64,000 nucleotides of DNA from positions 6,327 to 70,326 of the forward strand of contig WQZP01000001.1 of the NCBI GenBank assembly GCA_009780675.1. Direction: 5' to 3'. The position numbers and the translations under genes were made by a program. The DNA comes from Spirochaetaceae bacterium. GTDB taxonomy: Bacteria > Spirochaetota > Spirochaetia > CADAEX01. Below the pieces are notes generated by a model. The model made no database searches. It was not told the origin of the DNA and worked only from the letters and a program-made list of their open reading frames with translations. Shown here in pieces: positions 11,297-55,844 of the stretch. Each line of letters begins with the position of its first letter. Position 1 is the stretch's first letter.

Positions 11297-12061
11297 CTAC
11301 GGGGTACAGCTTCGCTTATCCTTAGTAATTTTGGTTTTGGTATGCGGATCAATATTTTTTATGATTTCCGGGAAACTTCCCGCAATACCTATTTTATCAT
11401 TCTTTACGATTAAAACTCCTTGAACACCTTTTATAGAAATAACTTTTTCAAGAGCATCAGGTATATCTTTTTCTTCTTTCACAAGATTACCGGCAAGCGT
11501 TGAGGCAGAGTCCGCAAGAGCTCCGTCTGTTGATATAACAGTTGCCAGATTACAATCTCCAAAACTTAGAGAGTGCCCCATTTTACTTGAAGAAGAACAT
11601 ATTGATATTGGCGTAGCTTCTGGTTTAATTAAAACCGCAAGATTTGACGCAATAGTTGAATTGCCTGCATATAACGCTATTTTTGTTTCGTTTTTGGAGA
11701 AAATATAAATATCCCCCCCGTTTTCAATTACTGCCTCGTCTGCACCTGCCGCAACCGCTGCTTCCGCTGCTATTTGCGCAGTTACTCCTGCTACAGATGC
11801 CATAGGCCCTACTCCTGTTAAAAGCGATGCTTTGTGCATCCTCCTTACTATATCAGGAGCATCGGAATCTATTTCCTGCAATGGAACCAGCGATTCCACA
11901 AAATCTTTATATTTTATAATATAATTGCTTAAAATAGTTCGCTGCTTAATAATTTCATCTTTTATTATATCAAATGCCGAGGATATTATTTTAAAATTAG
12001 CCCCTTTCCAGGAAAACGACCGGACTATTCTGTTATTGGATAAAAAAAAGTTGTTTGCCAT
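11297..12061 (-). CDS. UPF0280 family protein (ApbE-like), last gene of the DUF39 homocysteine cluster
   Basis: LLTGVGPMASVAGVTAQIAAEAAVAAGADEAVIENGGDIYIF is characteristic of the UPF0280 family. It is co-directional and adjacent to the NIL-ferredoxin and DUF39 genes. Confidence 0.55.
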   Translation of the reverse strand: MANNFFLSNNRIVRSFSWKGANFKIISSAFDIIKDEIIKQRTILSNYIIKYKDFVESLVPLQEIDSDAPDIVRRMHKASLLTGVGPMASVAGVTAQIAAEAAVAAGADEAVIENGGDIYIFSKNETKIALYAGNSTIASNLAVLIKPEATPISICSSSSKMGHSLSFGDCNLATVISTDGALADSASTLAGNLVKEEKDIPDALEKVISIKGVQGVLIVKNDKIGIAGSFPEIIKNIDPHTKTKITKDKRSCTP

Positions 12062-12076
12062 AATATTGCAAAAACA

Positions 12077-12490
12077 TTATTGAAAACATATTGAACTGCA
12101 CGCGCCAAAAGGGCAATTTTCAATACAGCTAAGGCACTGTATACATTTCTCCATATTATATTCCATTCGCCTTGATTTTCTGTCTATTATAAATAGCGCA
12201 TCTGTAGGGCAGTGCGATAGACAATTGCCGCATTGGATACAAGTATCTTTATCCCAGCGTATGCCGTTATCAGTTTCATTTATTTCTATATTTTCCGATT
12301 TTAGAAATTTAAGAGCTTTTTTTATATTTTCCTCCTCGCCACTAATATCAAGGACAAGATACCCGGTTTCATCGGGTGTTATTTTTGCTCTGAATATATT
12401 AACAACAAGATCATGATCTTTTACAAGACGATATACTATAGGTTTTTCTGTATCGTTTTTTTTAAAATGAAGAAGAAGTTTTTTTGTCAT
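12077..12490 (-). CDS. NIL-domain protein fused to a 2x[4Fe-4S] ferredoxin (MA1822-like)
   Basis: N-terminal NIL-like region, then two CxxCxxCxxxCP clusters (CIQCGNCLSHCP, CIQCLSCIENCP). There is a 4-nt overlap with the upstream DUF39 gene. Confidence 0.7.
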   Translation of the reverse strand: MTKKLLLHFKKNDTEKPIVYRLVKDHDLVVNIFRAKITPDETGYLVLDISGEEENIKKALKFLKSENIEINETDNGIRWDKDTCIQCGNCLSHCPTDALFIIDRKSRRMEYNMEKCIQCLSCIENCPFGACSSICFQ

Positions 12491-13680
12491 TTTTTCTTCC
12501 CCTTGATTTGCAGACCCCTTACCGATTGATTTTTAGGCAAAGAAGATGATGGCTTTGAGATAAGAAAATCGCCGCGCTTGATTTCATCTTTAAGAATTTC
12601 TGTAATTTCAAGAGCCTTGTTATATGAAGACAATGAGCTTATCTCAACTTTTTTCCCCAGTATGTTTATATCATCCTGCATTATCAACTGCTCGTAATTT
12701 ACCTTTGTAATAATCTTGCCTGTTTTGTGTTGATAATCATGACTGTAGTCAATAACGCAAGCTTCAATGTCTCTGTTTTTTACAGTTACATACTTTAATA
12801 TATTTTCATTAAGAATAGGTATTGGAATACCTACACCAACAGAAAGTGAAACTCCATAACCCTTAAGACTTGCGCCCCGTACAAATTCCTTTTTCATTTT
12901 TTTCATATCTGCTGTAAGGGCAAGTGTTCCGGCCCCTTCTATGGGAACTCCGTTTTCCCCCCGTTGGCATGTGGGGCTGTGCTGTGTCCCTTCGGCGTAA
13001 ACTAGCCCTCTGCTTCCGGCAAGCCACACACTTGTTCCAATCCCTATGGTTTCATAAAAAGGGTCATTAAGAAGCGGAGATAATTGTCCTGCAGAGCAAA
13101 AAGTAAGATTCTGCATTTTGGGTTTAAGTATTCCAAGATATGTATAAACAGTTTTATCCGAGCAATTTATTGCAACATTATAATTCTGGTAACAGTTTCT
13201 GGGATTTACCATTATAGCCTGATTAAGGTCATTTATATCAAACAAAGTTCTTATCTCTTTTAAAGGGTAATCATCTGTTCCGTATGATAGCGCAAAAAGC
13301 TGACACTTTTCCCCTGCGACAAGTTTTTCTATTACATGACCGCCGCCAAATTTAAATTCTCCGGGATAGTTCATATTTGCAGGGTCATTATGTCTAAGCT
13401 GCGTTGCTCCAAGATAAATATCTACAGCCGCGACTCCTGAGTAACAAAGAACATCATCTATCCATGCTTCTGTTATTCTCATTCTTGGATTTGAATGCCC
13501 AAAATTTAAAAAACAGCCCGATGAACACATAGGCCCAAAAGTAGCAGTAGTTACAATATCTACTTCTTTTGCTGCTTTTTCGATCCCTTTTTTATCTACA
13601 TAATCGATAATTTCTTCTGCAGTAAGAACAACTGCTTTTCCAGATTCAATTTTTTTGTTTATATCTTCATAGGTTTTCAT
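12487..13680 (-). CDS. DUF39/COG1900 homocysteine biosynthesis protein (L-aspartate semialdehyde sulfurtransferase-like, MA1821 family), without the CBS pair
   Basis: The N-terminus MKTYEDINKKIESGKAVVLTAEEIIDY...DIVTTATFGPMCSSGCFLNFGHS and the overall 397-aa profile fit COG1900. Confidence 0.7.
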   Translation of the reverse strand: MKTYEDINKKIESGKAVVLTAEEIIDYVDKKGIEKAAKEVDIVTTATFGPMCSSGCFLNFGHSNPRMRITEAWIDDVLCYSGVAAVDIYLGATQLRHNDPANMNYPGEFKFGGGHVIEKLVAGEKCQLFALSYGTDDYPLKEIRTLFDINDLNQAIMVNPRNCYQNYNVAINCSDKTVYTYLGILKPKMQNLTFCSAGQLSPLLNDPFYETIGIGTSVWLAGSRGLVYAEGTQHSPTCQRGENGVPIEGAGTLALTADMKKMKKEFVRGASLKGYGVSLSVGVGIPIPILNENILKYVTVKNRDIEACVIDYSHDYQHKTGKIITKVNYEQLIMQDDINILGKKVEISSLSSYNKALEITEILKDEIKRGDFLISKPSSSLPKNQSVRGLQIKGKKK

Positions 13681-13793
13681 TTCACTATATCATATTATTT
13701 ATGAAAAAATAATTCAATAAAATTATTTTAAAAATCCTGGAAGTGCTTATTAAGGGCTTGAAACTATTGTATTAAACAGTATAAATATTCATT

Positions 13794-14774
13794 ATGCAGA
13801 TATTATCTTCTATTAAGAAAAATTGGCTCATAATTGGTATCTTTGTAGCAGTAATTTGTGGCTACTATTTTCCGGAATTCGCGAAAATAATAAATAAGGA
13901 CAGAATGTTTTCGACTTTTCTTGTGATTTTTTTGTTTTTTATACAAGGTTTTATTCTACAAAAAGAAAAAGTCTTTTCAGGGATCAAAAATTTAAAACTT
14001 CATGTCACTATGTTGTTTTTTACTTTTATATTCTATCCATTATATTTTTTTATTTTTGTGAACATCCTTCCTCTCACAGATAATGAAGGAGTTATTGCCG
14101 GGCTTTTTATCCTTGCCTGTTTACCTACAACTATTGCCAGTTGCGCAGTATTTACAAGCCTGGCAGGTGGAAATACAAGCGGCGTTATTTTTAATACAGT
14201 TATTTCCAATACAGCCGGAGTTTTTATTACACCACTGCTATTTTCTTTTATGGTAACAACAGCAGCATTGGTACTTCCTCTTTCCATGCTTTCTGAAGTC
14301 CTGGTTGGTCTTGTGATAAGGATAATTATACCTATGGCATTGGGAATGATTCTGCGCAATTTTTTCATTGAATTTATTGATAAAAACAGAAAGAAATTTT
14401 CCACAGCCAGCAGCATTGCAATTCTGTGTATACTGTTTTTGGCATTTGCAGAAAGTTCAAATTATATAACTTCGGATTTGGTTGCAACGTTATATCCTGT
14501 GTTCATTTTTTTAGCAGTATCATATTTTATAATATCTTTTATTATTTACAAAACAGCATCCTTGCTCGGCTTTCCGGAAGAAGATATAATAGCAAGTGTT
14601 TTTACAGGTGCGCAAAAAACACTTGCAGGCGCGCCACTTATAACACTATTTTTTAAAGATAGCCCACATATGTTGGGAATAGTGTTGATTCCTCTTCTTT
14701 TCTTCCATCCATGGCAGCTTTTTTCATCCACTTTTATAGTAAAATATTTTTTAAGAAAAAAAGAGTCTGGATAA
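13794..14774 (+). CDS. Polytopic membrane transporter, probably bile acid:sodium symporter (BASS) family
   Basis: About 9-10 TM helices. Small-residue-rich helices (LPTTIASCAVFTSLAGGNTSGVIFNTVISNTAGVFITPLL) are typical of the BASS/ACR3 fold. Confidence 0.4.
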   Translation: MQILSSIKKNWLIIGIFVAVICGYYFPEFAKIINKDRMFSTFLVIFLFFIQGFILQKEKVFSGIKNLKLHVTMLFFTFIFYPLYFFIFVNILPLTDNEGVIAGLFILACLPTTIASCAVFTSLAGGNTSGVIFNTVISNTAGVFITPLLFSFMVTTAALVLPLSMLSEVLVGLVIRIIIPMALGMILRNFFIEFIDKNRKKFSTASSIAILCILFLAFAESSNYITSDLVATLYPVFIFLAVSYFIISFIIYKTASLLGFPEEDIIASVFTGAQKTLAGAPLITLFFKDSPHMLGIVLIPLLFFHPWQLFSSTFIVKYFLRKKESG

Positions 14775-15107
14775 TTATGCGCTAAGCAATTTTGCGATTT
14801 CAGCAGATACATTGAACTGATTTTTTTTTGTAGAAAGAATAGCAATATTTTCTCCCTTTGCAGCTTGTATCATATCTTCGGGAGCAGTTTTTCCATTGCA
14901 GATAACAATTACTCTTGCGCCCACAAGAGTTGCAACCGCAACTGTATTTTTATGTGCCTGGATTGTTATTAGAGCAGAATCAGAAGGGGTATTTGCCATT
15001 ACATCGCTTAAAAGGTCCCCTGCGTACCCTGCTTTTATTTCAGTATTGTTATCCCCTTCAGAAAGAACCAGGTAACCTGTTCTTGCAATAAAATCCGCTA
15101 GTTTCAT
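14775..15107 (-). CDS. Standalone DRTGG-domain protein
   Basis: GDLLSDVM...ALITIQAH...VAVATLVGARVIVICNGKTAPEDMIQAAKGENIAILST matches the DRTGG-domain pattern. Confidence 0.5.
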   Translation of the reverse strand: MKLADFIARTGYLVLSEGDNNTEIKAGYAGDLLSDVMANTPSDSALITIQAHKNTVAVATLVGARVIVICNGKTAPEDMIQAAKGENIAILSTKKNQFNVSAEIAKLLSA

Positions 15108-15141: not shown

Positions 15142-15483
15142 TTAACATTTTCCCAACAGTTTTCCCAATAAAATACACACTTCAAACATACTCAAGCTTG
15201 TTGATAGAAGAGTGATATCTGATTCTACTGTAAGATTACGCATTGAATTCTGAGGTTGTTTACCATTTAAAAGAATAACGCCAATAGCTTTAACACTTTC
15301 TGCTGTTTTTATTACTTGATCCGTAGTAAGCGTTGTAACAATAATTCTATTTTCTTCATCGCTAAGAAAAACTTCGCCCATTATATCGCCGGCGAAAATA
15401 TTTATAATACTTGCAGTATTAAAGTTATTCCCCTTATGAATAACCTCACACTTCAAAACATCGATAATTTGTTCAAATGTCAT
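15142..15483 (-). CDS. Second standalone DRTGG-domain protein, paralogous to 14775-15107 (start placed at an internal Met with RBS GGAG)
   Basis: AGDIMGEVF...IVTTLTTDQVIKTAESVKAIGVILLNGKQP has the same architecture as its neighbour. GGAGTAAAAATG gives a good RBS for the Met at 15483. Confidence 0.45.
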   Translation of the reverse strand: MTFEQIIDVLKCEVIHKGNNFNTASIINIFAGDIMGEVFLSDEENRIIVTTLTTDQVIKTAESVKAIGVILLNGKQPQNSMRNLTVESDITLLSTSLSMFEVCILLGKLLGKC

Positions 15484-15696
15484 TTTTACTCCGACTCTTT
15501 GGGGTTTGTATAGCAATATCAATCTTATACTATATAATATATTTTTTGCCAATCATCCCTGTTTAGAAAGTAAGCATACTTTATAGAATAATGATTTATT
15601 TATATGATATAATATATAGAAAATTTAATTATAAAATGATATAATAATCTATATAAATATGTGAAACATTATTTTGAGTTAATGTGGGAGAACTGA

Positions 15697-18493: not shown

Positions 18494-19657
18494 CTATCTC
18501 CTTACTACTCTGAATCCGATTTTTCTGGTATCTCTATCTTCCGGGAATCTGCTTTCTGGAAATGAACTTTCCCTGTAAGCTAACGAACTTTTTTCTTCAC
18601 TTGTTGCCCAACTGCCGCCTGCAACAGCTCTTTGAATTGCCATTGAGTCAAGAATAAATCTTGTATCAGGCAACCCCGCGCCCCTGTAATCTGTGTGGTC
18701 TTCTTTTGGCAATCTTATTAAAGCAATCCCATCTCTTACCAAAGGCGGGGCGCTTGTATCGCCTCTGTCTTGAGAGATTTCGTTATATATTTCTTCTGCA
18801 ATGCCTGTAATATCCCAGCACCACTCCATTACATTACCTGTCATGTCAAATAATCCCAGAGCATTGGGGTTTTTTCTCCCTACAGGGTGGGGGTTATTTC
18901 CGCTATTTGCAATATGCCATGCATAATCGTTTATGTGATTTAGCCCAGTATCACCTGAAAACTCTCTGTCTTGAGTATTTGTTCCCCCCAAAGCTGCCCA
19001 TAAAAATTCCATCTCTGTGGGTAGCCTGTATCCATTAGCATTCCAGTTGACTTCAATTCTGTTCCATAGGGAAATATGACTATCCTCAATAGTTTTTTCA
19101 GAATCACTATCGGTCATAGAGTGAGTTCCAGGAATAGCGCCCCAATTATCCGGGTTTGTCCCTTTTCCTGGTAAAGTGTATACAGGTGTTAGATTTTCTC
19201 TTATGCTCAATCTGTTACAAAAAACAATTGCTTCAAACCAATTCATCCCTGTTGCAGGAATGCGCTCTATATCTTCTTCGCTGAATATGTCGGAAAGGGA
19301 GTATGGATCATAAGCTTCATTCAGCCAAGGTTTTTCTCCCATTATTTTATAATACTCTGCTCTTGTTATTTCATATTTTCCAATATGAAAAGGCGAAATT
19401 GTCATTTCCCCAAAATCTGCAGCAGGATGAAAAGAGCCTCCTGCTACAAATATTAAATCAGAAACATTATCAGATACATGAGTTTCTTGATTACTGATAT
19501 TTCTGGCTGGTAAAACAGATTCTGTTATACTGCGTTCTCTTCTTTCCCTGTCTTCAAAATTTCCAAAAATACTGCTACCAGAATTATCACAGCCAATTAT
19601 TATAATCCCTATGATTAGTATAAATAACAAATAGAGATATATAGGTTTTACTTTCAA
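18494..19657 (-). CDS. Secreted formylglycine-generating-enzyme (FGE-sulfatase/SUMF1) family protein
   Basis: Signal-anchor N-terminus. GGSFHPAADFGEM, NWFEAIVFCNRLS, GYRLPTEMEFLWAALGG and GNVMEWCWD match the FGE-sulfatase domain. Confidence 0.75.
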   Translation of the reverse strand: MKVKPIYLYLLFILIIGIIIIGCDNSGSSIFGNFEDRERRERSITESVLPARNISNQETHVSDNVSDLIFVAGGSFHPAADFGEMTISPFHIGKYEITRAEYYKIMGEKPWLNEAYDPYSLSDIFSEEDIERIPATGMNWFEAIVFCNRLSIRENLTPVYTLPGKGTNPDNWGAIPGTHSMTDSDSEKTIEDSHISLWNRIEVNWNANGYRLPTEMEFLWAALGGTNTQDREFSGDTGLNHINDYAWHIANSGNNPHPVGRKNPNALGLFDMTGNVMEWCWDITGIAEEIYNEISQDRGDTSAPPLVRDGIALIRLPKEDHTDYRGAGLPDTRFILDSMAIQRAVAGGSWATSEEKSSLAYRESSFPESRFPEDRDTRKIGFRVVRR

Positions 19658-21546: not shown

Positions 21547-21734
21547 GCAAAAAAAGTTTGTTATTTTTAAAAAAAAATGCTAATATATCACTGTGAATCT
21601 GGCATTTTTGATGTAAATATGCTCAACAGGCAAGACAATTATGTGGCCGAACATCATTTTAACAATTATTCGTATTGTCTTATAATTAATCCGGCTGAAA
21701 ATGCCGGCTGTCCATGAAAAAGGAGTTTTCTGGA

Positions 21735-23150
21735 ATGAAAAAGATTTTCAAATTATTTGGGATAGCTGTGTGTGTAGCAGTAATCGGACTTCTTGCAGCA
21801 GGTTGTAGCAACAATGTGCTGTCAGACGACATCCCTGATGATCCAGATGACTACCCTACTGCCCCAGAGCACATGCCTGCTGTTATTACAATAACTACAC
21901 AACCAAGTCTAAAAACAAGTGTAGGAGTTGGAGGAAGTGACATTCTGAATGTGGTGGCAAGAATTATAGAGGGTGCGGAGCATAGTTACCAATGGTTCCG
22001 CAACGACGTTAACAGCAATGTTGGTGGTACTGAAATAATCGGAGCAACAAGCGCAAGTTTTACTATACCCACGAATCTCTCTACAGGTATGCATTTTTAT
22101 TTTGTCGAAGTTAGGGCAACCAGCGAGGACGAGGCAGTTTCTTTCCGCTCTAGCGTGGCAAGGGTTGTGGTGGGGACACTGCCTATACTCCCTATAGAGA
22201 TGGTGTTGGTGCATGGTGGTACTTTTATGCTGGGCAGGGAGCTTGGACCTGTTGGCACCGTTACATTTGACATCGTTCGAACTGGCACCGTTGATACAGC
22301 TCATGTGTCTACAGTAACACTAGAAGGTTTTCGCATAGGCAAGTTTCAGGTAACCCAAGCGCAGTTTGAGACAGTGATGACAGGGAATACCAATGGTATC
22401 AATTCCAATCCAATCAATCCAAGACCAAGTTGGTTTTGTTATAGGCATCCATATCTTAGGGACCCCGCTGTATGCGAAATTCCGGACAGGCGGCCTGTTG
22501 AGAGAGTAAGTTGGTATGATGCAATAGTATTTTGTAATAGATTGAGTATTATGGAAGGTCGTAGCCCTGCGTATCGCTTTCCGATTCACTGGCCTGATCC
22601 AAATCCTGATAACCCTGCTCATTGGTCTACTAATCCTGCTGTTTGGGGACCTGTACCCACAACCTGGAAGTCACCAACTGATGATCCAGACGAGGAAAAT
22701 CCATTGAGAGCTAGATGGGATGCTGTTAGGATAGTTCCCGGTGTTAATGGTTTTCGTTTGCCGACCGAAGCGCAGTGGGAATTTGCAGCAAAGGGAGGTA
22801 ATACTACACCCAATAACTTTACATTCTCTGGGAGCAATAATCCTAATGCTGTAGCGTGGCACTGGGGTAACAGCGGAGGCAAAACCCGTGAAGTTGGACG
22901 TTTGGCTTCTAATGGTTTGGGAATATACGATATGAGCGGGAATGTTTGGGAGTGGTGCTGGGACTGGCATGCTGCTTACACAACTGGTGCAAAGACAAAT
23001 CCTGAGGGCCCTCCCTCGGGGACTACTCGCGTGGCACGCGGTGGAAGGTGGAATAGTTCAGCTGCAGGCACGCGTTCTGTTGCTAGATACGGCCTCACTC
23101 CGACCGTTCAGGATAAATTCATTGGTTTTCGCGTTGTTCTTCCCGAATAG
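21735..23150 (+). CDS. Secreted or lipoprotein FGE-sulfatase-family protein with an N-terminal beta-rich domain (alternative upstream ATG at 21714)
   Basis: Signal peptide plus AAGCSNN lipobox. C-terminal FGE motifs: SWYDAIVFCNRLS, GFRLPTEAQWEFAAKGG, GNVWEWCWDW, GFRVV. The gene is visibly GC-richer than its flanks. Confidence 0.75.
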   Translation: MKKIFKLFGIAVCVAVIGLLAAGCSNNVLSDDIPDDPDDYPTAPEHMPAVITITTQPSLKTSVGVGGSDILNVVARIIEGAEHSYQWFRNDVNSNVGGTEIIGATSASFTIPTNLSTGMHFYFVEVRATSEDEAVSFRSSVARVVVGTLPILPIEMVLVHGGTFMLGRELGPVGTVTFDIVRTGTVDTAHVSTVTLEGFRIGKFQVTQAQFETVMTGNTNGINSNPINPRPSWFCYRHPYLRDPAVCEIPDRRPVERVSWYDAIVFCNRLSIMEGRSPAYRFPIHWPDPNPDNPAHWSTNPAVWGPVPTTWKSPTDDPDEENPLRARWDAVRIVPGVNGFRLPTEAQWEFAAKGGNTTPNNFTFSGSNNPNAVAWHWGNSGGKTREVGRLASNGLGIYDMSGNVWEWCWDWHAAYTTGAKTNPEGPPSGTTRVARGGRWNSSAAGTRSVARYGLTPTVQDKFIGFRVVLPE

Positions 23151-32933: not shown

Positions 32934-34277
32934 TTAAAATATTTCTTCGTGCTCATCCATAATATGGATATAAACGATTTTGCTTTTTACAAAATCAAAT
33001 GCATCAATTTTTGCTATGGCTTTACGCATATTTTCTTCTTTTACTTTATGGGTGATGATTATAACAGGCACATAAGCTCCTGTTATTTGCTCCCCTGCTG
33101 TTTCTTCTACCAACTCTTTTTGAAGAACGCTCGATATGCTTATATCATTTTCTGCAAAAACCGATGCGATTTTTGAAAGAACACCAGCGCAGTCTTTTGC
33201 ATTGATCCTTAGATAGTATCTTCCTTTTCCTTCTCCATCAGGAAGCAGTGGAGCTGGTTTTGTTTTATCGGGCCATATTGGGAGAGTTGAGAAAGTTTTT
33301 TCTGCTGTTCCCAGGAATACACTTATAATATCTGATACAACCGCAGAAGCTGTAGGAGAACCGCCTGCTCCCCGTCCATAATACATTGAGTGGCCAAGAG
33401 CATGGCTATACAAGCTTATTGCATTAAAAGAGCCTGTTACCCACGCAAGAGGGTGTTCTTTTCGTATAAATGATGGCGCAACTCTAATTGCAAGCTTTCC
33501 ATCAACAAGTCTTGCCATTGCAATAAGCTTTATTATATAACCCAATTCTTTTCCTGAGTTGATGTCAAGCAGGTCAAGTTTATCAATACCTGAAACAGGT
33601 ATTGAGTCAACATCTATCTGCATTCCAAAAGTTATTGAACTTAATATCGCGAGTTTGTGGGCAGAATCCATTCCCGACACATCAAGTGTAGGATCAGCTT
33701 CGGCAAGCCCTTTTTCCTGAGCTTCTTTAAGAGCTTTTTTATATGAAACCCCATTTAAAGTCATTTCTGTAAGGATATAATTACACGTGCCATTTACTAT
33801 TCCATAGAGAGCATCTTGTTTATTTGCTATAAGTCCATCATAAATAGCTCTTATTATTGGAATCCCGCCACCGCAAGAGGCTTCAAAAGATATAGATACC
33901 TTGTTTTTTCTGGCAGCAGCAAATAACTCTACTCCATGCATTGCCAATAGCGCTTTATTTGCTGTAACAAGATGTTTTTTTGCATTTAATATTTTTAGGG
34001 CTGCATTTTTTGCAAATGTTGTTCCACCTACCAACTCAACAACAACTGCAACTTCCGGATCCTCAAGAACTTCGTCCAGATTGCTCTTAAAAAGAGAACT
34101 GTCAAGATTGAGTTCTTTTGCGCGCGCAAAGTTAGTATCGATAATATATTTCAGGAAAAAAGTGAGATTTGTCCTTTTTTTTAAGAAGTCGATATCTTGT
34201 GTAAGAAGCTTTGCAGTGGCGCCACCTACAACGCCGCATCCAAGAATAGCTATAGCTTGTTTTTTTACTCTGTCCAT
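32934..34277 (-). CDS. hom: Homoserine dehydrogenase with a C-terminal ACT domain
   Basis: N-terminal Rossmann IAILGCGVVGG, the catalytic region, and an ACT-like C-terminus. Confidence 0.85.
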   Translation of the reverse strand: MDRVKKQAIAILGCGVVGGATAKLLTQDIDFLKKRTNLTFFLKYIIDTNFARAKELNLDSSLFKSNLDEVLEDPEVAVVVELVGGTTFAKNAALKILNAKKHLVTANKALLAMHGVELFAAARKNKVSISFEASCGGGIPIIRAIYDGLIANKQDALYGIVNGTCNYILTEMTLNGVSYKKALKEAQEKGLAEADPTLDVSGMDSAHKLAILSSITFGMQIDVDSIPVSGIDKLDLLDINSGKELGYIIKLIAMARLVDGKLAIRVAPSFIRKEHPLAWVTGSFNAISLYSHALGHSMYYGRGAGGSPTASAVVSDIISVFLGTAEKTFSTLPIWPDKTKPAPLLPDGEGKGRYYLRINAKDCAGVLSKIASVFAENDISISSVLQKELVEETAGEQITGAYVPVIIITHKVKEENMRKAIAKIDAFDFVKSKIVYIHIMDEHEEIF

Positions 34278-44745: not shown

Positions 44746-46326
44746 CTATCTGAAAAGAGCGCTATAAGCATCAAGAACAGGATTTTCCTGAGCTCCTGCT
44801 AACACTTTGTTTGCCAGTTTTTTCCCAAGCTGCACCCCTTCCTGGTCAAATGAGTTTATATTCCATAAAAATCCCTGAAACATTGTTCTGTTTTCAAAAT
44901 GAGCTAATAGTGACCCTAGTGTTTCAGGTATTAGTTTTTGACCTATAAGGATATCTGAGTTCCTTCCTCCAGGGAAGTTTTTATTAGGGTTATCATCCTT
45001 ATGCCCAATCGCAAAAGCTGTTATTTGCGCTGCGAGGTTTGCATTAAGCTTTTTCTGGCAAGTGCTTCCTTGAAAATCAACATCATTAAGTTGTTGCGAC
45101 TCTTTAAATCCTATAAATTTTAGAGGGACAATATCTGTTCCCTGATGCAGCATTTGATAAAAAGAGTGTTGTCCATTAGTTCCTGGTTCTCCAAAGATAA
45201 CAGGACTGGTTTCATATTTTAGTAATTTGCCTTTAAAATTTACACTTTTACCATTACTTTCCATTATAAGCTGCTGCAAATGCGCAGGAAAACGGGAAAG
45301 AGCCTGGCTATAGGGCAATATTGCTTCGGTTGTTGTTTTAAGTATATTTCTGTCATAAACAGATAAAAGAGCATCAAGAAGAGGCGCGTTTTTTAATATA
45401 TCATTTTCCAGAGCCATTACATCATTACTATGAGCCCCTTCCAGTAATTTGTTAAATACATCACTCCCAAACGCAAGGCTTAATATAACTCCGCCAACCG
45501 CGCTTGTGGATGAATATCTTCCCCCAATAAAATCATCAATATAAAATGATTTATAAAACTCAAGGGGATTTTCCATGGGACTTCCCTTGCCAGTAACAGC
45601 TATCATGTGCTTTGCAATATCCAAAGACTTGGATTTTGACTTTATAAGGTCTTTTACAAGAGCTGTGTTGGCAAGGGTCTCCTGAGTTGTTCCACTTTTT
45701 GAAACAACTATAAAGAGAGTTGTTTCCGGATTTATGCGCGACATGACATCAGATGCGTCATCTGGGTCTACATTTGATATAAATTCGCAGTTAATTAAAG
45801 GTTTTTGCCCACCGCTTTGCATAAATCCTTTTAAAGCAAGGTAGAGCGCTCTGGGGCCAAGGTCTGATCCCCCAATACCAATTTGCACAGCAGTATCAAA
45901 CTTTGCTCCGCTTGACCCTTTTATTTTCCCGCTATGCACTTTTTCTGCAAAATCAGAAAACCTCTCTATCTGTTTTTTATATAGATTTATTTTTGAAGAA
46001 ACCCCTTTTTTATACTCAACATCATGCACCCCTCTTGTATAGTGGTGGAGCACCATTCTTTTTTCTCCGGGATTCATTATGCTGCCGTGTAAGATTTCTT
46101 TATATTTTTCAATTACCTGCTGCTCATCAGCTAATTGCTGAAAAAGCTTAAGTAGCTTTTTATCCACAGATTTTGCCGAATAATTATAGTCAAGACCAAT
46201 TCCTGTTTTAATATTGTACTTTGATATTCTTTCTGCTGAAAGGATATTTTTTATATCAGGAGTTGGGAAAGATACTAATTCTTTAAATGATTCTGCTTCT
46301 GTAAGATTTTTAAATTTTACACTCAT
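44746..46326 (-). CDS. pgi: Glucose-6-phosphate isomerase (start placed at the ATG with a GGAG RBS; the ORF extends to a GTG at 46338)
   Basis: Long-form PGI signatures (DYSKN-like region, GGRYS, conserved catalytic Glu/His region). Confidence 0.9.
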   Translation of the reverse strand: MSVKFKNLTEAESFKELVSFPTPDIKNILSAERISKYNIKTGIGLDYNYSAKSVDKKLLKLFQQLADEQQVIEKYKEILHGSIMNPGEKRMVLHHYTRGVHDVEYKKGVSSKINLYKKQIERFSDFAEKVHSGKIKGSSGAKFDTAVQIGIGGSDLGPRALYLALKGFMQSGGQKPLINCEFISNVDPDDASDVMSRINPETTLFIVVSKSGTTQETLANTALVKDLIKSKSKSLDIAKHMIAVTGKGSPMENPLEFYKSFYIDDFIGGRYSSTSAVGGVILSLAFGSDVFNKLLEGAHSNDVMALENDILKNAPLLDALLSVYDRNILKTTTEAILPYSQALSRFPAHLQQLIMESNGKSVNFKGKLLKYETSPVIFGEPGTNGQHSFYQMLHQGTDIVPLKFIGFKESQQLNDVDFQGSTCQKKLNANLAAQITAFAIGHKDDNPNKNFPGGRNSDILIGQKLIPETLGSLLAHFENRTMFQGFLWNINSFDQEGVQLGKKLANKVLAGAQENPVLDAYSALFR

Positions 46327-46529
46327 TTTTTTCTCCACAAATTGAATTTTAAGAAAAGACCTGTTAATTATATACTAGTTATAAAAAAATCAAAGTAAAT
46401 TTGTTTATTTATACAGATGAAGGAAGGTTCTTTACTCTATTTGTTTCAGGTTGGAGTTGTATATACTATAAAAATAGTCGAGGAATTTTTCAATTAATTA
46501 TTTGCCATTTTCAGTAATGACAGAGAGCA

Positions 46530-47795
46530 TTAGCTGTTTTTCAATGCCTGATCAATATCTTCGATAATATCATCAGCATCTTCAATCCCAATCGAAAGCC
46601 TTACAAGATCAGGCATAAGCCCTGCTTCTTCTTGCTCCTTTTCCGACATCTGGGAGTGTGTAGTGCTTGCTGGATGTATCGCAAGGGTTTTTATATCCCC
46701 AACATTTGCAACATGAGTTATAAGCTTTAGGCTGTCTATAAATTTTTTGCCGCCTTGCAAACCATTATCGATCCCAAAAACAACCATCCCCCCGAATTTG
46801 CCATTGTAATATTTTGATGCCAAATCCCATGATGGATCGGTTTTTAAACCCGGATAACGCACCCATTTTACTCTTGGATGGTTTTTCAGAAATTCTGCTA
46901 TTTTCATTGCATTCGCGCAATGTTTGTCCATTCTGAGCGGGAGCGTTGCAATCCCCTGGATAAAGAGCCATGCGCTGTCCGGACTTATACATGCTCCAAG
47001 GTTTCTTAGTGGCACAACCCTTAGGCGCGTAATAAAAGGGGGTATTGTTTCGGGGAGAGAACTAAACATCAGATTATTATATGAAGCATCGGGCTTGTTA
47101 TATAATTCAAATTTTTTATCTTTCCAGTCAAATTTTCCTCCATCAACAACAATCCCTCCAAGTCCATTATCATGGCCGCCAATCCATTTTGTAAGAGAAT
47201 GGATCACAATATCTGCTCCGTATTCAAGGGGCCGGAATATGTATGGTGTTGTAAATGTGCTGTCAACTGCCAATGGAATATTATTTTTTTTGGCAACTAC
47301 AGAAATCGCTTTAATGTCAGCAACATCAAGCACAGGATTTCCAATAGTTTCTGTAAAATATAGTTTTGTTTTTGATGTTGTAGCTTTGTCAAAATTTTCA
47401 GGGTTATTCGAATCAACAAAAACAGTTTTTATCCCAAATTCAGGTAAAATGGAGGCAAGCATGGTATATGTTCCGCCATAAAGTTTGCTTGAAGATATGA
47501 TCTCATCACCTTCTTTGCAAATATTTATTATAGTATAAAAAATGGCAGAGGTTCCCGAAGACAGGGCAAGCGCAGCTTTTCCCCCTTCGAGAGCAGCAAC
47601 TCTTTCCTCAAGCACTGCTTGCGTAGGATTCATCATTCTTGAGTATATGTTACCCGGCTTTTTAAGGCTGAAAAGGTCTGCGGCAAAGTCGGTGTTGTCA
47701 AAAACATATGCAGATGTTCTGTATATTGGCACGTTGTCCGAAGAATTATTTGTAGGATAATATCCTGAATGTACTGCTTTTGTAGAAAATTTCAT
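46530..47795 (-). CDS. metY: O-acetylhomoserine/O-acetylserine sulfhydrylase (PLP-dependent Cys/Met metabolism family)
   Basis: PLP-lysine region SLTKWIGGH, and the N-terminal YxxxxNPT motif. Confidence 0.85.
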   Translation of the reverse strand: MKFSTKAVHSGYYPTNNSSDNVPIYRTSAYVFDNTDFAADLFSLKKPGNIYSRMMNPTQAVLEERVAALEGGKAALALSSGTSAIFYTIINICKEGDEIISSSKLYGGTYTMLASILPEFGIKTVFVDSNNPENFDKATTSKTKLYFTETIGNPVLDVADIKAISVVAKKNNIPLAVDSTFTTPYIFRPLEYGADIVIHSLTKWIGGHDNGLGGIVVDGGKFDWKDKKFELYNKPDASYNNLMFSSLPETIPPFITRLRVVPLRNLGACISPDSAWLFIQGIATLPLRMDKHCANAMKIAEFLKNHPRVKWVRYPGLKTDPSWDLASKYYNGKFGGMVVFGIDNGLQGGKKFIDSLKLITHVANVGDIKTLAIHPASTTHSQMSEKEQEEAGLMPDLVRLSIGIEDADDIIEDIDQALKNS

Positions 47796-47847: not shown

Positions 47848-48777
47848 TTATGGTTTGGCATTAAATATTCCTGTTGAAAGATATCTTTCTCCGCTATCGC
47901 AAAGAATAGTTACAATAACAAGCCCTTTATTTTTCTCTGATTCTGATATTGCTTTTGCTGCAAAAACATTTGCGCCTGATGAAATACCCACGAATATCCC
48001 TTCTGTTTTTAAAAGAGTGCGGGACATCTCTATTGCATCTCCGCTTTTTACTCTGATTACTTTATCAATAACTGATTTATCAAGGATTTCAGGAATAAAT
48101 CCTGCTCCTATCCCCTGAATACGGTGGATGCCTGCTGCTTCTCCAGACATTACAGATGATTCCTCTGGCTCTATGGCTGCCACTTTTACAGCGCTGTTTT
48201 TCTCTTTGAAATATTTACCGCAGCCCGAAACAGTGCCACCTGTTCCTACTCCAGCAACAAGCCAGTTGATTTTTCCATCAGTATCTTTCCATATCTCTGG
48301 ACCTGTTGTTTTATAATGAGCTTCCATGTTTGATATATTTGAAAACTGCATTGGCATAAAGCTGTTTTTGTTTGAGCTCCTTATTTCCTCTGCTTTTTTT
48401 ATTGCACCTGACATCCCTTCTGCTGCCGGAGTAAGAACAACTTCCGCGCCCATTGCTGCAAGGAGATTTCTCCTTTCAATACTCATTGACTCAGGCATTA
48501 CAAGTATAAGCCTGTATCCTTTTACTGCGCAAACAAGAGCAAGCCCTATTCCTGTATTGCCGCTTGTGGGCTCAACTATTATGCTGTTGGGCTGTAATTT
48601 CCCTTCTTTTTCTGCGTTGTCTATCATAAAAAGAGCAGCTCTGTCTTTAATGCTTGCAGCAGGATTCATGAATTCTGCTTTTGCAAGAACAGTATTTCCT
48701 GTTTCTTGAGATATTTTTTTTAATTTTATTAGCGGTGTTTTTCCAATAATATCTAAAACAGATTCCGCAAATACCAT
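47848..48777 (-). CDS. cysK: Cysteine synthase A (O-acetylserine sulfhydrylase)
   Basis: PLP-binding Lys motif (PAASIKDR) and the EPTSGNTGIGLA glycine loop. The start is placed at the Met with RBS GGAGGAG. Confidence 0.9.
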   Translation of the reverse strand: MVFAESVLDIIGKTPLIKLKKISQETGNTVLAKAEFMNPAASIKDRAALFMIDNAEKEGKLQPNSIIVEPTSGNTGIGLALVCAVKGYRLILVMPESMSIERRNLLAAMGAEVVLTPAAEGMSGAIKKAEEIRSSNKNSFMPMQFSNISNMEAHYKTTGPEIWKDTDGKINWLVAGVGTGGTVSGCGKYFKEKNSAVKVAAIEPEESSVMSGEAAGIHRIQGIGAGFIPEILDKSVIDKVIRVKSGDAIEMSRTLLKTEGIFVGISSGANVFAAKAISESEKNKGLVIVTILCDSGERYLSTGIFNAKP

Positions 48778-48837
48778 TACTCCTCCGGTATGTGCTAACA
48801 TCAGACTGAAAAAAATCGAAATCAGGTCTAATAATTA

Positions 48838-52875: not shown

Positions 52876-54735
52876 ATGAAAGTTATGAAAGCAATGGTGA
52901 TGGTTTTGCTTTTATCGGTTTTATTCTCCTCTTGCTTCAGAGTAGAAGAGGTTTCGCTTAAGGAATGGGAAAGCATTACTGTTGCGGGGCTGTATGAATT
53001 GTTGACTATGACCCAAAGCAGACCCTGGCGTGGAGAAGAATTTGTTTCCGGGCCTCCTGGCGGTGTTTGGAATTCAGCAGTTGTTGCTGAGCCAAAAACC
53101 TTCAATCTTCTGGTAGCAGAACGGGATGCCCCTTCCAATACCATTGTCCGGATGATGCTTGATTCCCTGCTGGATTACGATATGGTGCGCCGGGAATGGA
53201 CACCGCGGGCTGCATCTTTTGAAATCGAAGTTGACGAAGCTGCCGGGACACTCCGGGTCATATATACACTTAGGGATGATCTCTATTGGAGTTTTTACAA
53301 TTCAGACAGAAAGGTACCGGTTACAAGCAATGACGTTATCTTCTGGTACAATGAAATTCAGGGGGACAGGGCATTCCTTAGTTCTGCATTTAATAGTCAG
53401 TTTATTATGCTGGAAGATGGCAGTGCAGCTCGCGTTACCATCGAAAGAATCAACGATAAACGCTTTGCTTTCTTTTTCCCACGCATTGTGGCAGACCCTC
53501 TCCTTAGCACGAACATGACTTTTGGCCCCAGCTTTATTTTTGAAGAAGCAAAAAGAGAAAGAGGTGTTCAGGGGGTGATGGATCTTTTTAGTATTGCTTC
53601 TGACCCAAGAGAGATTCCCTCTTTTGGCCGATGGTTCCTTATAGAATATGTTCCGGGCTTGCGCATGGTATTCCGCAGAAACCCCAATCATTGGGAGAGA
53701 GATGATACTGGTTTTTCTTTTCCCTACGCCAGTGAAAATATAGTCCAAATTTTACCGGACACAGGTACCCAGTTTCTGGTTTTCCAGGAAGGCAGGCTTG
53801 ATACCTACGGAGCAAGACCCGAAGACCTGGATGTGCTTATCAGGGGTCAGGGGCGTGGTAGGAATAACCGCATCAGGAGCAACCGGGGAGACTACACAGT
53901 ATTTAACGCCGAAGGTTCTCTGGGCGCGCCTTTGTGGAGCTTTAATCAGAATCCGCGGAACAAGGATCAACCCTTTTATGAGTGGTTTACGCAAAAAGAA
54001 TTCCGCCAGGCCATGAGCTCTATTCTCAACAGGGACAGGATTGTATCCCAGGTGTTTCGGGGACTTGCAGAACCCAAGCTTGATTTTTTCCCTGCCCCAA
54101 ATCCATTTTATAATCCGGATATACGACTCCAGTTTACCTATGATCCTCAAAGGGCCATTGAACTTCTTGCTTCCATAGGTATGAACAGGGATGTTGCTGG
54201 CGTGATGCGGGATGCGCAGGGCAGGGCTGTGGAATTTGATCTTTCGATTTCAAGTGATGTAACGATACTTTCAGACACTGCTTCCATTATTGCAGATGAA
54301 GCTGCAAAGATTGGAATAAGGATAACCATTAGGCCTACAGATTTTCAAAGACTGGTGGATCAGTTGACTAATACTTATGATTGGTCTTCTGTAATTATTG
54401 CTTTGGGCGCTAATCTCTTTCCTTCACAGGGGAGTAACGTATGGCCATCAAGCGGCAATCTCCATCTATGGCATCCCCTGCAGACAGAGCCTGCCACTTA
54501 TTGGGAAGCGCGTATTGATTTTCTGTACAATGAAGGCAGCTTTACAGTTGACCCTGAAAAAGCATGGGTTATTTGGGATGAATTTCAGAGTATAATTCTG
54601 GAATACTTGCCTGTGATCTATCTTATCAGGTCGCGAAGTTTTTTCGCTATTCAGAATCGCTGGGATTTTACAAACTTTTACTTTGATAATCTCAATGGCG
54701 CAGAGATTTCCTATTTATTTTTGAGGTCGCATTAA
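52876..54735 (+). CDS. ABC transporter substrate-binding protein, family 5 (oligopeptide/dipeptide, OppA/DppA-like)
   Basis: Signal peptide with SSC lipobox. The ~600-aa SBP-5 architecture. Its start lies in a GC-rich segment. Confidence 0.75.
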   Translation: MKVMKAMVMVLLLSVLFSSCFRVEEVSLKEWESITVAGLYELLTMTQSRPWRGEEFVSGPPGGVWNSAVVAEPKTFNLLVAERDAPSNTIVRMMLDSLLDYDMVRREWTPRAASFEIEVDEAAGTLRVIYTLRDDLYWSFYNSDRKVPVTSNDVIFWYNEIQGDRAFLSSAFNSQFIMLEDGSAARVTIERINDKRFAFFFPRIVADPLLSTNMTFGPSFIFEEAKRERGVQGVMDLFSIASDPREIPSFGRWFLIEYVPGLRMVFRRNPNHWERDDTGFSFPYASENIVQILPDTGTQFLVFQEGRLDTYGARPEDLDVLIRGQGRGRNNRIRSNRGDYTVFNAEGSLGAPLWSFNQNPRNKDQPFYEWFTQKEFRQAMSSILNRDRIVSQVFRGLAEPKLDFFPAPNPFYNPDIRLQFTYDPQRAIELLASIGMNRDVAGVMRDAQGRAVEFDLSISSDVTILSDTASIIADEAAKIGIRITIRPTDFQRLVDQLTNTYDWSSVIIALGANLFPSQGSNVWPSSGNLHLWHPLQTEPATYWEARIDFLYNEGSFTVDPEKAWVIWDEFQSIILEYLPVIYLIRSRSFFAIQNRWDFTNFYFDNLNGAEISYLFLRSH

Positions 54736-54746
54736 CGATATAAATT

Positions 54747-55844
54747 ATGAAAATTATGAAAACTTCAAAAGGCTTTGTTGACTTTCTTACAAGACCCATT
54801 TTCCTCTTTAGAAAAAAAGCCCCTCTTCTTTCCTATATAGTGGGCCGTCTCCTTGTGATGATGCTGATGCTTTTTCTTCTGGGGCTCTCGGTTTTTGGAC
54901 TTATGGCGCTGGCGCCAGGGGATATTGTAAACCAGATAATGATTCAGCAGATCATGAGTTCATCTGAAGGGCGGGCTAATGTTACCCAGCAAGACCTGAC
55001 AGGAGAATGGGCCGAAGCCATGCGAAGGGAGCTTGGCCTTGACCAGCCATTCTATATCCAGTATTTCAGGTGGCTTAGACAGGTGGTTGTCCATCAGGAC
55101 CTTGGGGTAAGCCTTATTTCGCGGGCCCCGGTCTCTTTTTTGATAAGCTCCAGGCTTTGGAATTCTTTACTTCTTAATATGATATCACTTGTGCTGATTA
55201 CTTTTTTTTCGTTTTTGCTTGGAGTTTATTTTTCAACTAAGGCTGGAACCAAAACCGATGTTGCGGTTACTTTTTTTGCTCTGGCTCTTCACGCTTTTCC
55301 AGGCATATTGCTTTTGATTTTGTTGCAGCTCTTTGCTTTCTTTTCAGGGCTTTTTCCGGTAACTGCTTACCCGCCATTCCCTTTCCGGTATGCGCCCGGA
55401 CAATTTGTTTTTTCTTATGCGCACCATATTTTTCTGCCTCTGCTTGCTGCGTTTCTTGGCGGCATAGGCGGCACACTCAGGATAGTGCGGGCCATGATGC
55501 TGGATCAGTTGGGTCAGCCATATATCACGAGCCTCCGTTCCCGGGGCATTGCTGAATGGCGGATCTATCTTGTCCATGCTTTCAGAAATACTCTTAATCC
55601 ATTTATAACCGGAAGCGCCAATATGTTGGCTGGGCTTTTTTCCGGCTCCCTTATTTTGGAAATTATTTTCGCTTATCCTGGCATAGGGCGGCTTATGTAC
55701 GAGGCAGTGCTGCAGCAGGATGTTAATTTGGTTATGGCCAATATGATGCTTATTTCCTCCCTGGTTCTGGTGGGTATGGTCATAAGCGATATTTGTCTTG
55801 CGTTAGCTGACCCTCGTATCCGCTATGGGAAGGAAGGGAAGTGA
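54747..55844 (+). CDS. Opp/Dpp-type ABC transporter permease (OppB-like)
   Basis: Six TM helices, an N-terminal BPD-transporter region, and the EAA-like motif in the cytoplasmic loop. Confidence 0.8.
   Translation: MKIMKTSKGFVDFLTRPIFLFRKKAPLLSYIVGRLLVMMLMLFLLGLSVFGLMALAPGDIVNQIMIQQIMSSSEGRANVTQQDLTGEWAEAMRRELGLDQPFYIQYFRWLRQVVVHQDLGVSLISRAPVSFLISSRLWNSLLLNMISLVLITFFSFLLGVYFSTKAGTKTDVAVTFFALALHAFPGILLLILLQLFAFFSGLFPVTAYPPFPFRYAPGQFVFSYAHHIFLPLLAAFLGGIGGTLRIVRAMMLDQLGQPYITSLRSRGIAEWRIYLVHAFRNTLNPFITGSANMLAGLFSGSLILEIIFAYPGIGRLMYEAVLQQDVNLVMANMMLISSLVLVGMVISDICLALADPRIRYGKEGK

Follow-up and report, generated by a model that had tools for sequence, protein, structure and literature searches.

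An already annotated bacterial operon with a predicted role in homocysteine synthesis from aspartate semialdehyde and sulfide in an uncultured spirochaete

Among the closest described systems, the one in Desulfovibrio comprises a DUF39 protein (Dde_3007, DvMF_1464, DVU2938), a NIL/ferredoxin protein (DvMF_0262) and a COG2122 protein (DvMF_0044), each of which is genetically required for homocysteine synthesis (PMC4045070, PMC5764234). Judged by the locus tags, the three genes are scattered in D. vulgaris Miyazaki. In Dehalococcoides, the genes are arranged as an operon (DET0921:DET0919; PMC5764234). In Methanosarcina acetivorans, the equivalent proteins are MA1821, its partner MA1822 with a NIL domain and two [4Fe-4S] clusters, and the accessory COG2122 protein MA1715, whose gene is not adjacent to MA1821-22, judged by gene number. 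MA1821 carries a C-terminal CBS pair, which is thought to sense SAM. Its Cys54 is essential, and Cys131 is dispensable as the C131A variant is still active (PMC12068725). Homoserine is not an intermediate of this route (PMC5764234). The pathway is already contained in MetaCyc and GapMind (bioRxiv 10.1101/741918). A further member of the fold family is MMP16/ComF (COG1900d, TIGR03287), which performs an analogous aldehyde-to-thiol conversion (PMC12068725); here, a ferredoxin domain is inserted in the COG1900 domain, and the conserved cysteines are located elsewhere.

In the 64-kb stretch of Spirochaetaceae DNA analyzed here (referred to as the window), three minus-strand genes at 11297-13680 very probably represent an ordinary, already annotated bacterial operon, for which the sequence predicts homocysteine synthesis from aspartate semialdehyde and sulfide (Table 1). 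All three open reading frames are present exactly within this interval. The stop codon of the DUF39 gene and the start codon of the NIL-ferredoxin gene have 4 bp (ATGA) in common, and a gap of 15 bp separates the NIL-ferredoxin gene from the COG2122 gene. The three genes form a single tight operon like that of Dehalococcoides, in contrast to the scattered genes of D. vulgaris Miyazaki; the COG2122 gene lies within the operon, unlike MA1715. With Desulfovibrio, the locus shares the same three families (a likeness at the family level), a bacterial DUF39 protein without CBS and an anaerobic host. With M. acetivorans, it shares the essential COG1900a cysteine, the NIL and 2x[4Fe-4S] partner and the COG2122 accessory protein, a likeness at the level of families and motifs.

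Table 1 Features of the homocysteine-related genes in the window (positions refer to the 64-kb window)
Feature	Coordinates	Strand	Remarks
COG2122 / UPF0280 / ApbE-like accessory protein, MA1715- and DvMF_0044-type	11297..12061	-	254 aa
NIL-domain + 2x[4Fe-4S] ferredoxin subunit, MA1822-type	12077..12490	-	137 aa
DUF39 / COG1900a / PF01837 HcyBio, predicted catalytic subunit of L-ASST, the sulfurtransferase for L-aspartate semialdehyde	12487..13680	-	397 aa, without CBS pair
Divergent intergenic region, AT-rich, presumed operon promoter	13681..13793	.	113 bp; weak sigma-70-like matches
Homoserine dehydrogenase (hom), C-terminal ACT domain	32934..34277	-	PF00742 E 7.5e-60, PF03447, PF01842
MetY-type O-acetylhomoserine/O-acetylserine sulfhydrylase (MCL2791501.1)	46530..47795	-	TIGR01326 579.9 bits, cutoff 495.1
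Cysteine synthase A (cysK), directly upstream of metY	47848..48801	-	TIGR01139 425.8 bits, cutoff 351

The family identities given in the original prediction (DUF39/COG1900, NIL-ferredoxin and UPF0280/COG2122) were borne out by profile searches. The DUF39 protein matched PF01837 HcyBio over the full length of the profile (1-349 of 349, residues 16-374, E 2.9e-140). It is 100% identical to MCL2791469.1, which NCBI names a "homocysteine biosynthesis protein," and its relatives are named "L-aspartate semialdehyde sulfurtransferase" by JGI. The 137-aa protein matched PF09383 NIL at residues 6-71 (E 2.7e-17) as well as 4Fe-4S families, with two Fer4 matches. We observed two CX2CX2CX3CP 4Fe-4S motifs in this protein, which start at residues 84 (CIQCGNCLSHCP) and 116 (CIQCLSCIENCP). 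The 254-aa protein gave no match in the local Pfam copy; its public gene call has a precomputed match to PF27030 AbpE_bact, and it matched PDB entry 2O34 at E 1.6e-33. Against the NCBIfam PRK04334 models (PRK04334.1-3), it scored 211.8 bits (E 9.8e-63), where the equivalog cutoff is 271. Its sequence homology to COG2122/UPF0280 is clear at the family level, below equivalog status. The E-values of these profile matches lie well outside the range expected by chance.

A methanogen-type operon in a bacterium, as the original prediction puts it, is not unusual. Close relatives of the DUF39 protein are found in at least 580 species genomes, with an identity of about 70% across bacterial phyla. The 80 bacterial loci that we sampled among these genomes belong to Spirochaetia, Desulfobulbales, Planctomycetota, Lentisphaerae/Victivallales, Verrucomicrobiota, Myxococcales, and others. 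The NIL-ferredoxin gene directly follows the DUF39 gene in all 80, and the COG2122 gene follows both in 75; at least three of the five loci that lack it there end at contig borders. Together with the Desulfovibrio genetics, this makes the trio a known one, and its assignment is correct but ordinary for a bacterium.

The absence of the CBS pair was also confirmed, as the profile search of the 397-aa protein returned no CBS match, whereas MA1821 has such a pair and the 504-aa representative P0123 contains two CBS stretches. As a peculiarity of this protein, however, the absence did not stand. Bacterial DUF39 members normally have no CBS pair, genetically validated ones included, which was reported in 2014 (PMC4045070), and hence the CBS pair does not define the family. 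A PDB search for a DUF39/COG1900 relative returned no solved structure. The CBS-free, highly conserved 397-aa bacterial form would be a reasonable target for crystallography or cryo-EM.

Cys52 of the DUF39 protein lies in the motif FGPMCSSG, which aligns with the same motif in the CBS-bearing and other representatives, and all of the 120 close homologs have this cysteine. We equate Cys52 with Cys54 of MA1821 on the basis of motif and spacing (PMC12068725). At the position of MA1821 Cys131, the second "nearly universal" cysteine within the GTDC motif, the window protein has Asp137, a minor variation. Among the 120 close homologs, the equivalent residue is aspartic acid in 100, glutamic acid in 19, and cysteine in one, while 10 of 12 divergent representatives bearing Cys52 have cysteine there. 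As the C131A variant of MA1821 keeps its activity (PMC12068725), an aspartic acid at this position is compatible with membership in the L-ASST group. We considered Cys163 as a relocated second cysteine that compensates for the loss. It did not covary cleanly and is also present in some members that have the Cys131 equivalent, and the idea was rejected. In a very large bacterial L-ASST clade, the archaeal model enzyme's second conserved cysteine is missing, and the mechanistic candidates are narrowed to Cys52.

By analogy with the characterized homologs, the activity, electron donor, and regulation of the trio may be pictured as follows. Cys52 of the DUF39 subunit would carry sulfur as a persulfide and hand it on to aspartate semialdehyde at its aldehyde carbon. 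Electrons for reducing the intermediate to homocysteine would come from the two 4Fe-4S clusters of the NIL-ferredoxin, and the COG2122/ApbE-like protein may aid the mobilization or loading of sulfide. Methionine feedback probably acts via the NIL domain. Homoserine would be bypassed.

Upstream of the operon, sigma-70-like matches are weak (TTGAAT, 17 nt, TATGAT at 13717-13689), and a scan for promoters and terminators gave a number of sites that was not clearly higher than in shuffled sequences. No Rfam family reached its gathering score in the whole window, and no riboswitch was found. At E<=10, the region 13500-14000 gave noise only, with no methionine- or SAM-responsive element upstream of the operon. 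This negative result counts against the assignment to homocysteine synthesis, as do Asp137 and the COG2122 score below the equivalog cutoff.

Besides the DUF39 operon, the original prediction listed cysK, a MetY-type enzyme, and hom in the same window, and all three are present. The true start of cysK is probably at 48777, where the alignment to the CysK of a relative begins. The presence of hom is uninformative with respect to a second route because homoserine lies outside the DUF39 route and hom is required for threonine regardless (PMC5764234). Two routes to homocysteine in one genome had been considered remarkable. M. acetivorans, the reference organism, however, is known to have another methionine route that is orthogonal to the first (PMC12068725, section 10), and in two related spirochaete chromosomes (MetY 66-67% identical), the DUF39 operon and cysK-metY-metA (with HTS, PF04204) are both present. 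The window shares with these relatives the orthologous cysK and metY genes and the order nfo, a Thi4-like gene, a gene for an unknown protein of 370-387 aa, cysK, and metY. It differs in that metY is followed by pgi and not by metA. Of the two routes, the second was not seen in complete form here, as metA/HTS and metX are absent from the 64 kb. A search with HTS proteins by tblastn found no metA in the window (best E 0.75), the NCBIfam scan of the window gave no MetX-like match, and the upstream flank of about 10 kb on the 157,621-bp source contig contains only dnaG, rpoD, mreBCD, and PBP2 and neither of the two genes. HTS homologs compared with the MCL279xxxx accession block gave none inside the block, where most clusters have no listed accession; P0427, an HTS candidate with a matching source pattern, derives from other samples. 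A second complete homocysteine route in this genome is therefore unproven, since metA and metX are not in the 64 kb and metA is absent from the position it has in the relatives. The cysK-metY pair may serve as a second route only if the genome encodes a homoserine O-acyltransferase.

From these data, one could argue that this lineage has no functional route to homocysteine other than the L-ASST operon. In that case, the classical route would be in the course of being dismantled: an ancestral cysK-metY-metA operon would have lost metA, while MetY would be kept for another role such as O-acetylserine sulfhydrylation together with CysK. The distribution of HTS fits this reading, as the gene follows metY in the more distant relatives but is missing there in the window and in three closer relatives (MetY 76-87% identical). 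The negative searches for HTS and MetX are in line with it, and TIGR01326 describes a subfamily of bifunctional OAH/OAS sulfhydrylases. However, MetY is intact and strongly conserved, and metA or metX may be located elsewhere because the inspected sequence comprises the 64 kb and about 10 kb of upstream flank. We consider the loss of the classical route possible but rather doubtful.

Two other explanations touch the DUF39 operon itself, and both fall far behind its assignment to homocysteine synthesis. The DUF39 protein could be a paralogous COG1900 enzyme that forms another thiol from another aldehyde, like MMP16/ComF, which makes coenzyme M from sulfoacetaldehyde. Functionally distinct subfamilies do exist within COG1900 (PMC12068725, PMC4045070), and the window protein is missing the second conserved cysteine of L-ASST. 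Yet the TIGR03287 model for MMP16/ComF gave 120.3 bits, where the cutoff is 363.95, a profile search detected no inserted ferredoxin domain of the MMP16 kind, and the cysteine of the COG1900a PMCSSG motif is present. In addition, the gene is linked to NIL-ferredoxin and COG2122 genes as in validated homocysteine systems (PMC5764234), and the scanned window ORFs include no coenzyme M genes, so that a paralogous function is very unlikely. Even less probable is a recent horizontal acquisition of the cluster from methanogenic archaea, although the pathway was first characterized in methanogens and the DUF39 identity of about 70% across bacterial phyla would fit a degree of lateral spread among bacteria. 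All of the nearest homologs come from bacteria, and identity to the CBS-bearing representative is only 46%. The operon has a native composition (GC 0.33-0.38, GC3 0.25-0.29), similar to the housekeeping genes of the window, and together with part of its neighborhood (the ClpB and DRTGG genes), it is syntenic in related Spirochaetia. A recent transfer into this genome was rejected on the basis of the composition and the synteny.

Taken further, this Spirochaetaceae sub-lineage might be replacing the classical route. With metA lost, it would obtain homocysteine from the DUF39 operon alone and keep MetY for a different sulfur reaction. At the same time, the large bacterial DUF39 clade to which the window protein belongs might use Cys52, Cys56, and Cys163, with aspartic or glutamic acid in place of Cys131. 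We regard this combined picture as speculative and unlikely. If the altered cysteine set is real, the core mechanism would do without the second cysteine known from the archaeal model enzyme. The missing metA in the cysK-metY operon of the sub-lineage is possibly a snapshot of pathway replacement.

The main value of the assignment lies in annotation. Like many anaerobes, this uncultured spirochaete can probably convert aspartate semialdehyde and sulfide directly to homocysteine and thereby supply itself with methionine. In metabolic reconstructions, the spirochaete should not be scored as a methionine auxotroph, even without metA or metX.

Our ORF calls in the window gave three co-directional genes on the minus strand, with coordinates identical to those of the original prediction, which had named a DUF39 protein, a NIL-ferredoxin and a UPF0280 partner. 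PF01837 (HcyBio, formerly DUF39) matches the first protein over the whole profile (1–349 of 349). As Pfam found no second domain in it, the CBS pair is absent, as had been claimed. In the second protein, the NIL domain occupies residues 6–71 with the 4Fe-4S families C-terminal to it, and the sequence holds two complete CX2CX2CX3CP motifs, CIQCGNCLSHCP at residue 84 and CIQCLSCIENCP at residue 116. The profile searches thus bear out both names. The third protein gave no match in the Pfam copy searched; NCBIfam PRK04334 models match it (best E 9.8e-63, scoring under the equivalog cutoffs), its public gene call has a precomputed match to PF27030 (AbpE_bact), and PDB 2O34 aligns with E 1.6e-33.

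Window features discussed in the text
Feature	Coordinates	Strand	Evidence
DUF39/HcyBio protein, 397 aa	13680..12487	minus	PF01837 E 2.9e-140
NIL-ferredoxin, 137 aa	12490..12077	minus	PF09383 (E 2.7e-17) + 4Fe-4S families
COG2122/UPF0280-type protein, 254 aa	12061..11297	minus	PRK04334 models, PF27030, PDB 2O34
metY	46530..47795	minus	TIGR01326
pgi	44746-46338	minus	
metY–pgi gap, 191 bp	46339-46529		
DRTGG-like small ORF	15552..15142	minus	
DRTGG-like small ORF	15107..14775	minus	
SBF-like transporter	13794-14774	plus	PF13593/BASS family
FGE-sulfatase/SUMF1-like protein	18494-19657	minus	
FGE-sulfatase/SUMF1-like protein	21714-23150	plus	
Opp-type peptide ABC transporter cluster	52876-58012	plus	SBP_bac_5, permease
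Flavoprotein, 425 aa	51187-52464	plus	weak Thi4 and Pyr_redox_2 similarity
Radical SAM protein, 838 aa	1996-4512	plus	Radical_SAM_N2, Radical_SAM, DUF2344
Hybrid histidine kinase, 1310 aa	36069-40001	plus	GAF, HisKA, HATPase_c, receiver

The three genes form one operon. The stop codon of DUF39 and the start codon of the NIL-ferredoxin gene overlap (ATGA), 15 bp separate the NIL-ferredoxin gene from the third gene, and the operon is bordered 5′ by a divergent intergenic region of 113 bp and 3′ by convergent clpB. Nothing points to recent import, as GC (0.33–0.38) and GC3 (0.25–0.29) of the three genes are like those of the window's housekeeping genes. Rfam detected no riboswitch, for SAM or otherwise, either in the whole window (gathering thresholds) or in the region 5′ of the operon (E ≤ 10), and the promoter-like hexamers in that region were not significant.

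Upstream of the operon lie two DRTGG-like ORFs, 34 bp apart. Related Spirochaetia (loci L087:5306-7762, L005, L006, L071 and L077) have the same pair on either side of a CBS+HATPase_c gene, followed by a PHP-domain gene; this four-gene module sits just 5′ of DUF39, in the same orientation. In the window, the CBS-HATPase and PHP genes are entirely missing. An SBF-like transporter, divergent from the operon and weakly similar in NCBIfam to the pantoate/pantothenate transporter PanS, sits where relatives have the PHP gene, and it also adjoins in L004, the closest relative (DUF39 91% identical).

Scanning one genome per species, we found at least 580 species genomes with a close DUF39 relative. 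The best 80 of these show 68–91% identity and include Spirochaetia, Desulfobulbales, other Desulfobacterota, Lentisphaerae/Victivallales, Planctomycetota (Phycisphaerae, Sedimentisphaerales, Pirellulales), Verrucomicrobiota and Myxococcales. In tblastn of the window proteins against these best 80 loci, NIL-ferredoxin lies directly 3′ of DUF39 in 80/80, and a COG2122 homolog was detected 3′ of DUF39 in 75/80, directly after NIL-ferredoxin in about 69 and after a 1–2 kb insert in 6 (some Spirochaetaceae); COG2122 was not detected in 5, at least 3 of them at contig ends. The window operon is therefore the canonical bacterial arrangement. Hence, the description as a methanogen-type cluster in a bacterium holds for the gene families but not for the suggestion that they are unusual there. 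We also searched 1.84 billion cluster representatives exhaustively and without profiles; the DUF39 protein matched 836 clusters at 50% identity (E ≤ 0.001), with CBS-bearing (504 aa) and ferredoxin-fused (437–441 aa) architectures among them.

Desulfovibrio alaskensis needs the DUF39 protein Dde_3007 for homocysteine synthesis; like the window protein, Dde_3007 lacks the CBS domain found in archaeal MJ0100, and ferredoxin and COG2122 often adjoin DUF39 orthologs (Kuehl et al. 2014, PMC4045070). Price et al. highlighted the Dehalococcoides three-gene cluster DET0921:DET0919 (PMC5764234), and MetaCyc and GapMind already include the pathway (bioRxiv 10.1101/741918). In MA1821-22 of Methanosarcina acetivorans, aldehyde sulfurtransfer is the work of the COG1900 domain, with electrons coming from the ferredoxin subunit (PMC12068725). 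The domains, Fe–S motifs, catalytic cysteine and operon linkage are observed in the window system, and we infer all of its enzymatic steps by homology. Sulfide would be mobilised with the help of the COG2122 protein, and Cys52 in the DUF39 subunit would carry its sulfur as a persulfide. The persulfide sulfur would attack the aldehyde of aspartate semialdehyde, and the NIL-ferredoxin subunit, with its 2x[4Fe-4S] clusters, would donate two (or four) electrons to reduce the adduct to homocysteine. Methionine is thought to bind NIL and SAM to bind CBS (PMC12068725). As the CBS pair is absent, feedback would depend on the NIL domain.

Aligned with divergent representatives, Cys52 falls in a conserved FGPMCSSG motif, common to the CBS-bearing member. 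The GTDC-YP motif holds a second conserved cysteine, 76 residues past the first in P0123 (the 504-aa CBS-bearing representative) and 77 in MA1821, where it is Cys131; the window protein instead has Asp137. We compared 120 close homologs with 12 divergent representatives chosen for keeping Cys52. Position 52 is Cys in 120/120 and, by selection, 12/12, whereas position 137 is Asp in 100, Glu in 19 and Cys in 1 of the close homologs and Cys in 10/12 of the divergent set. Cys163 (120/120 versus 4/12) was considered as compensation, but some keepers of the GTDC cysteine also have it, which leaves no clear-cut case for compensation; Cys56 occurs in 114/120 and 0/12. In MA1821, Cys54 is essential and Cys131 dispensable (PMC12068725). 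As C131A is active, Asp137 is a clade-level variant and no reason to doubt function.

The claimed cysK, metY and hom are all in the window: cysK matches TIGR01139 over cutoff, the MetY-family enzyme scores 579.9 bits against a TIGR01326 cutoff of 495.1, and hom carries an ACT domain. As threonine needs hom whichever route is used (PMC5764234), hom is uninformative on a second route. Directly 3′ of metY, more distant relatives carry metA (PF04204, homoserine O-succinyl/acetyltransferase; L085:9273-10172, L086:9272-10171); in the window, pgi follows. Searches with the relatives' HTS proteins found no metA in the 64-kb window (best E 0.75), no MetX-like protein was detected there, and the 10 kb upstream of the window contain no met genes. 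Hence, the evidence confirms MetY but not a complete second route to homocysteine. In three closer relatives (L088, L089, L090; MetY 76–87% identical), metA is likewise absent after metY; the sub-lineage has apparently lost it from the cysK-metY-metA operon.

Two routes in one genome had been considered notable. Two single-chromosome relatives carry both systems: in one, of 3,052,020 bp, cysK-metY-metA lies at ~0.47 Mb, with the DUF39 operon at ~0.75 Mb, and the other, of 3,785,768 bp, also has both. Co-occurrence is therefore a lineage trait rather than a curiosity, and M. acetivorans, where the DUF39 system was defined, itself has two coexisting routes (PMC12068725).

The flavoprotein gene adjoins nfo and the cysK-metY locus in all relatives examined (L085, L086, L088, L089). 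A thioredoxin gene between nfo and a 370–387-aa ORF in L085, L086 and L090 is missing in the window. Elsewhere, the Opp-type cluster (GC 0.43–0.48 versus 0.37 for the window) includes a 723-aa ORF fusing an OppC-type permease to ABC ATPase and oligo_HPY domains, and it is possibly a foreign segment or an unusual fusion. Between the FGE-sulfatase/SUMF1-like genes, <4 kb apart, lie genes for a 3-hydroxyisobutyrate-dehydrogenase-like protein and an arginyl/leucyl-tRNA protein transferase (ATE), and we noticed no sulfatase gene in the vicinity. The radical SAM gene directly follows rodA, with a 4-bp-type overlap, and closes an mreBCD-PBP2-rodA cell-shape cluster seen in L084. The histidine kinase gene begins 200 bp 3′ of tRNA-Leu(TAA), and its ~520-aa N-terminal region has no Pfam match.

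NCBI MCL2791469.1 is 100% identical to the window DUF39 protein, and JGI labels close relatives "L-aspartate semialdehyde sulfurtransferase". The protein is encoded on an ENA contig of 157,621 bp, where the window corresponds to 37,509-101,508. The annotation of the operon is correct, and the operon is a textbook example of a system already described and annotated; both CBS absence and coexistence with MetY were documented before. Only two points are mildly new: metA was apparently lost in the sub-lineage, and the non-essential second cysteine is replaced across the clade.
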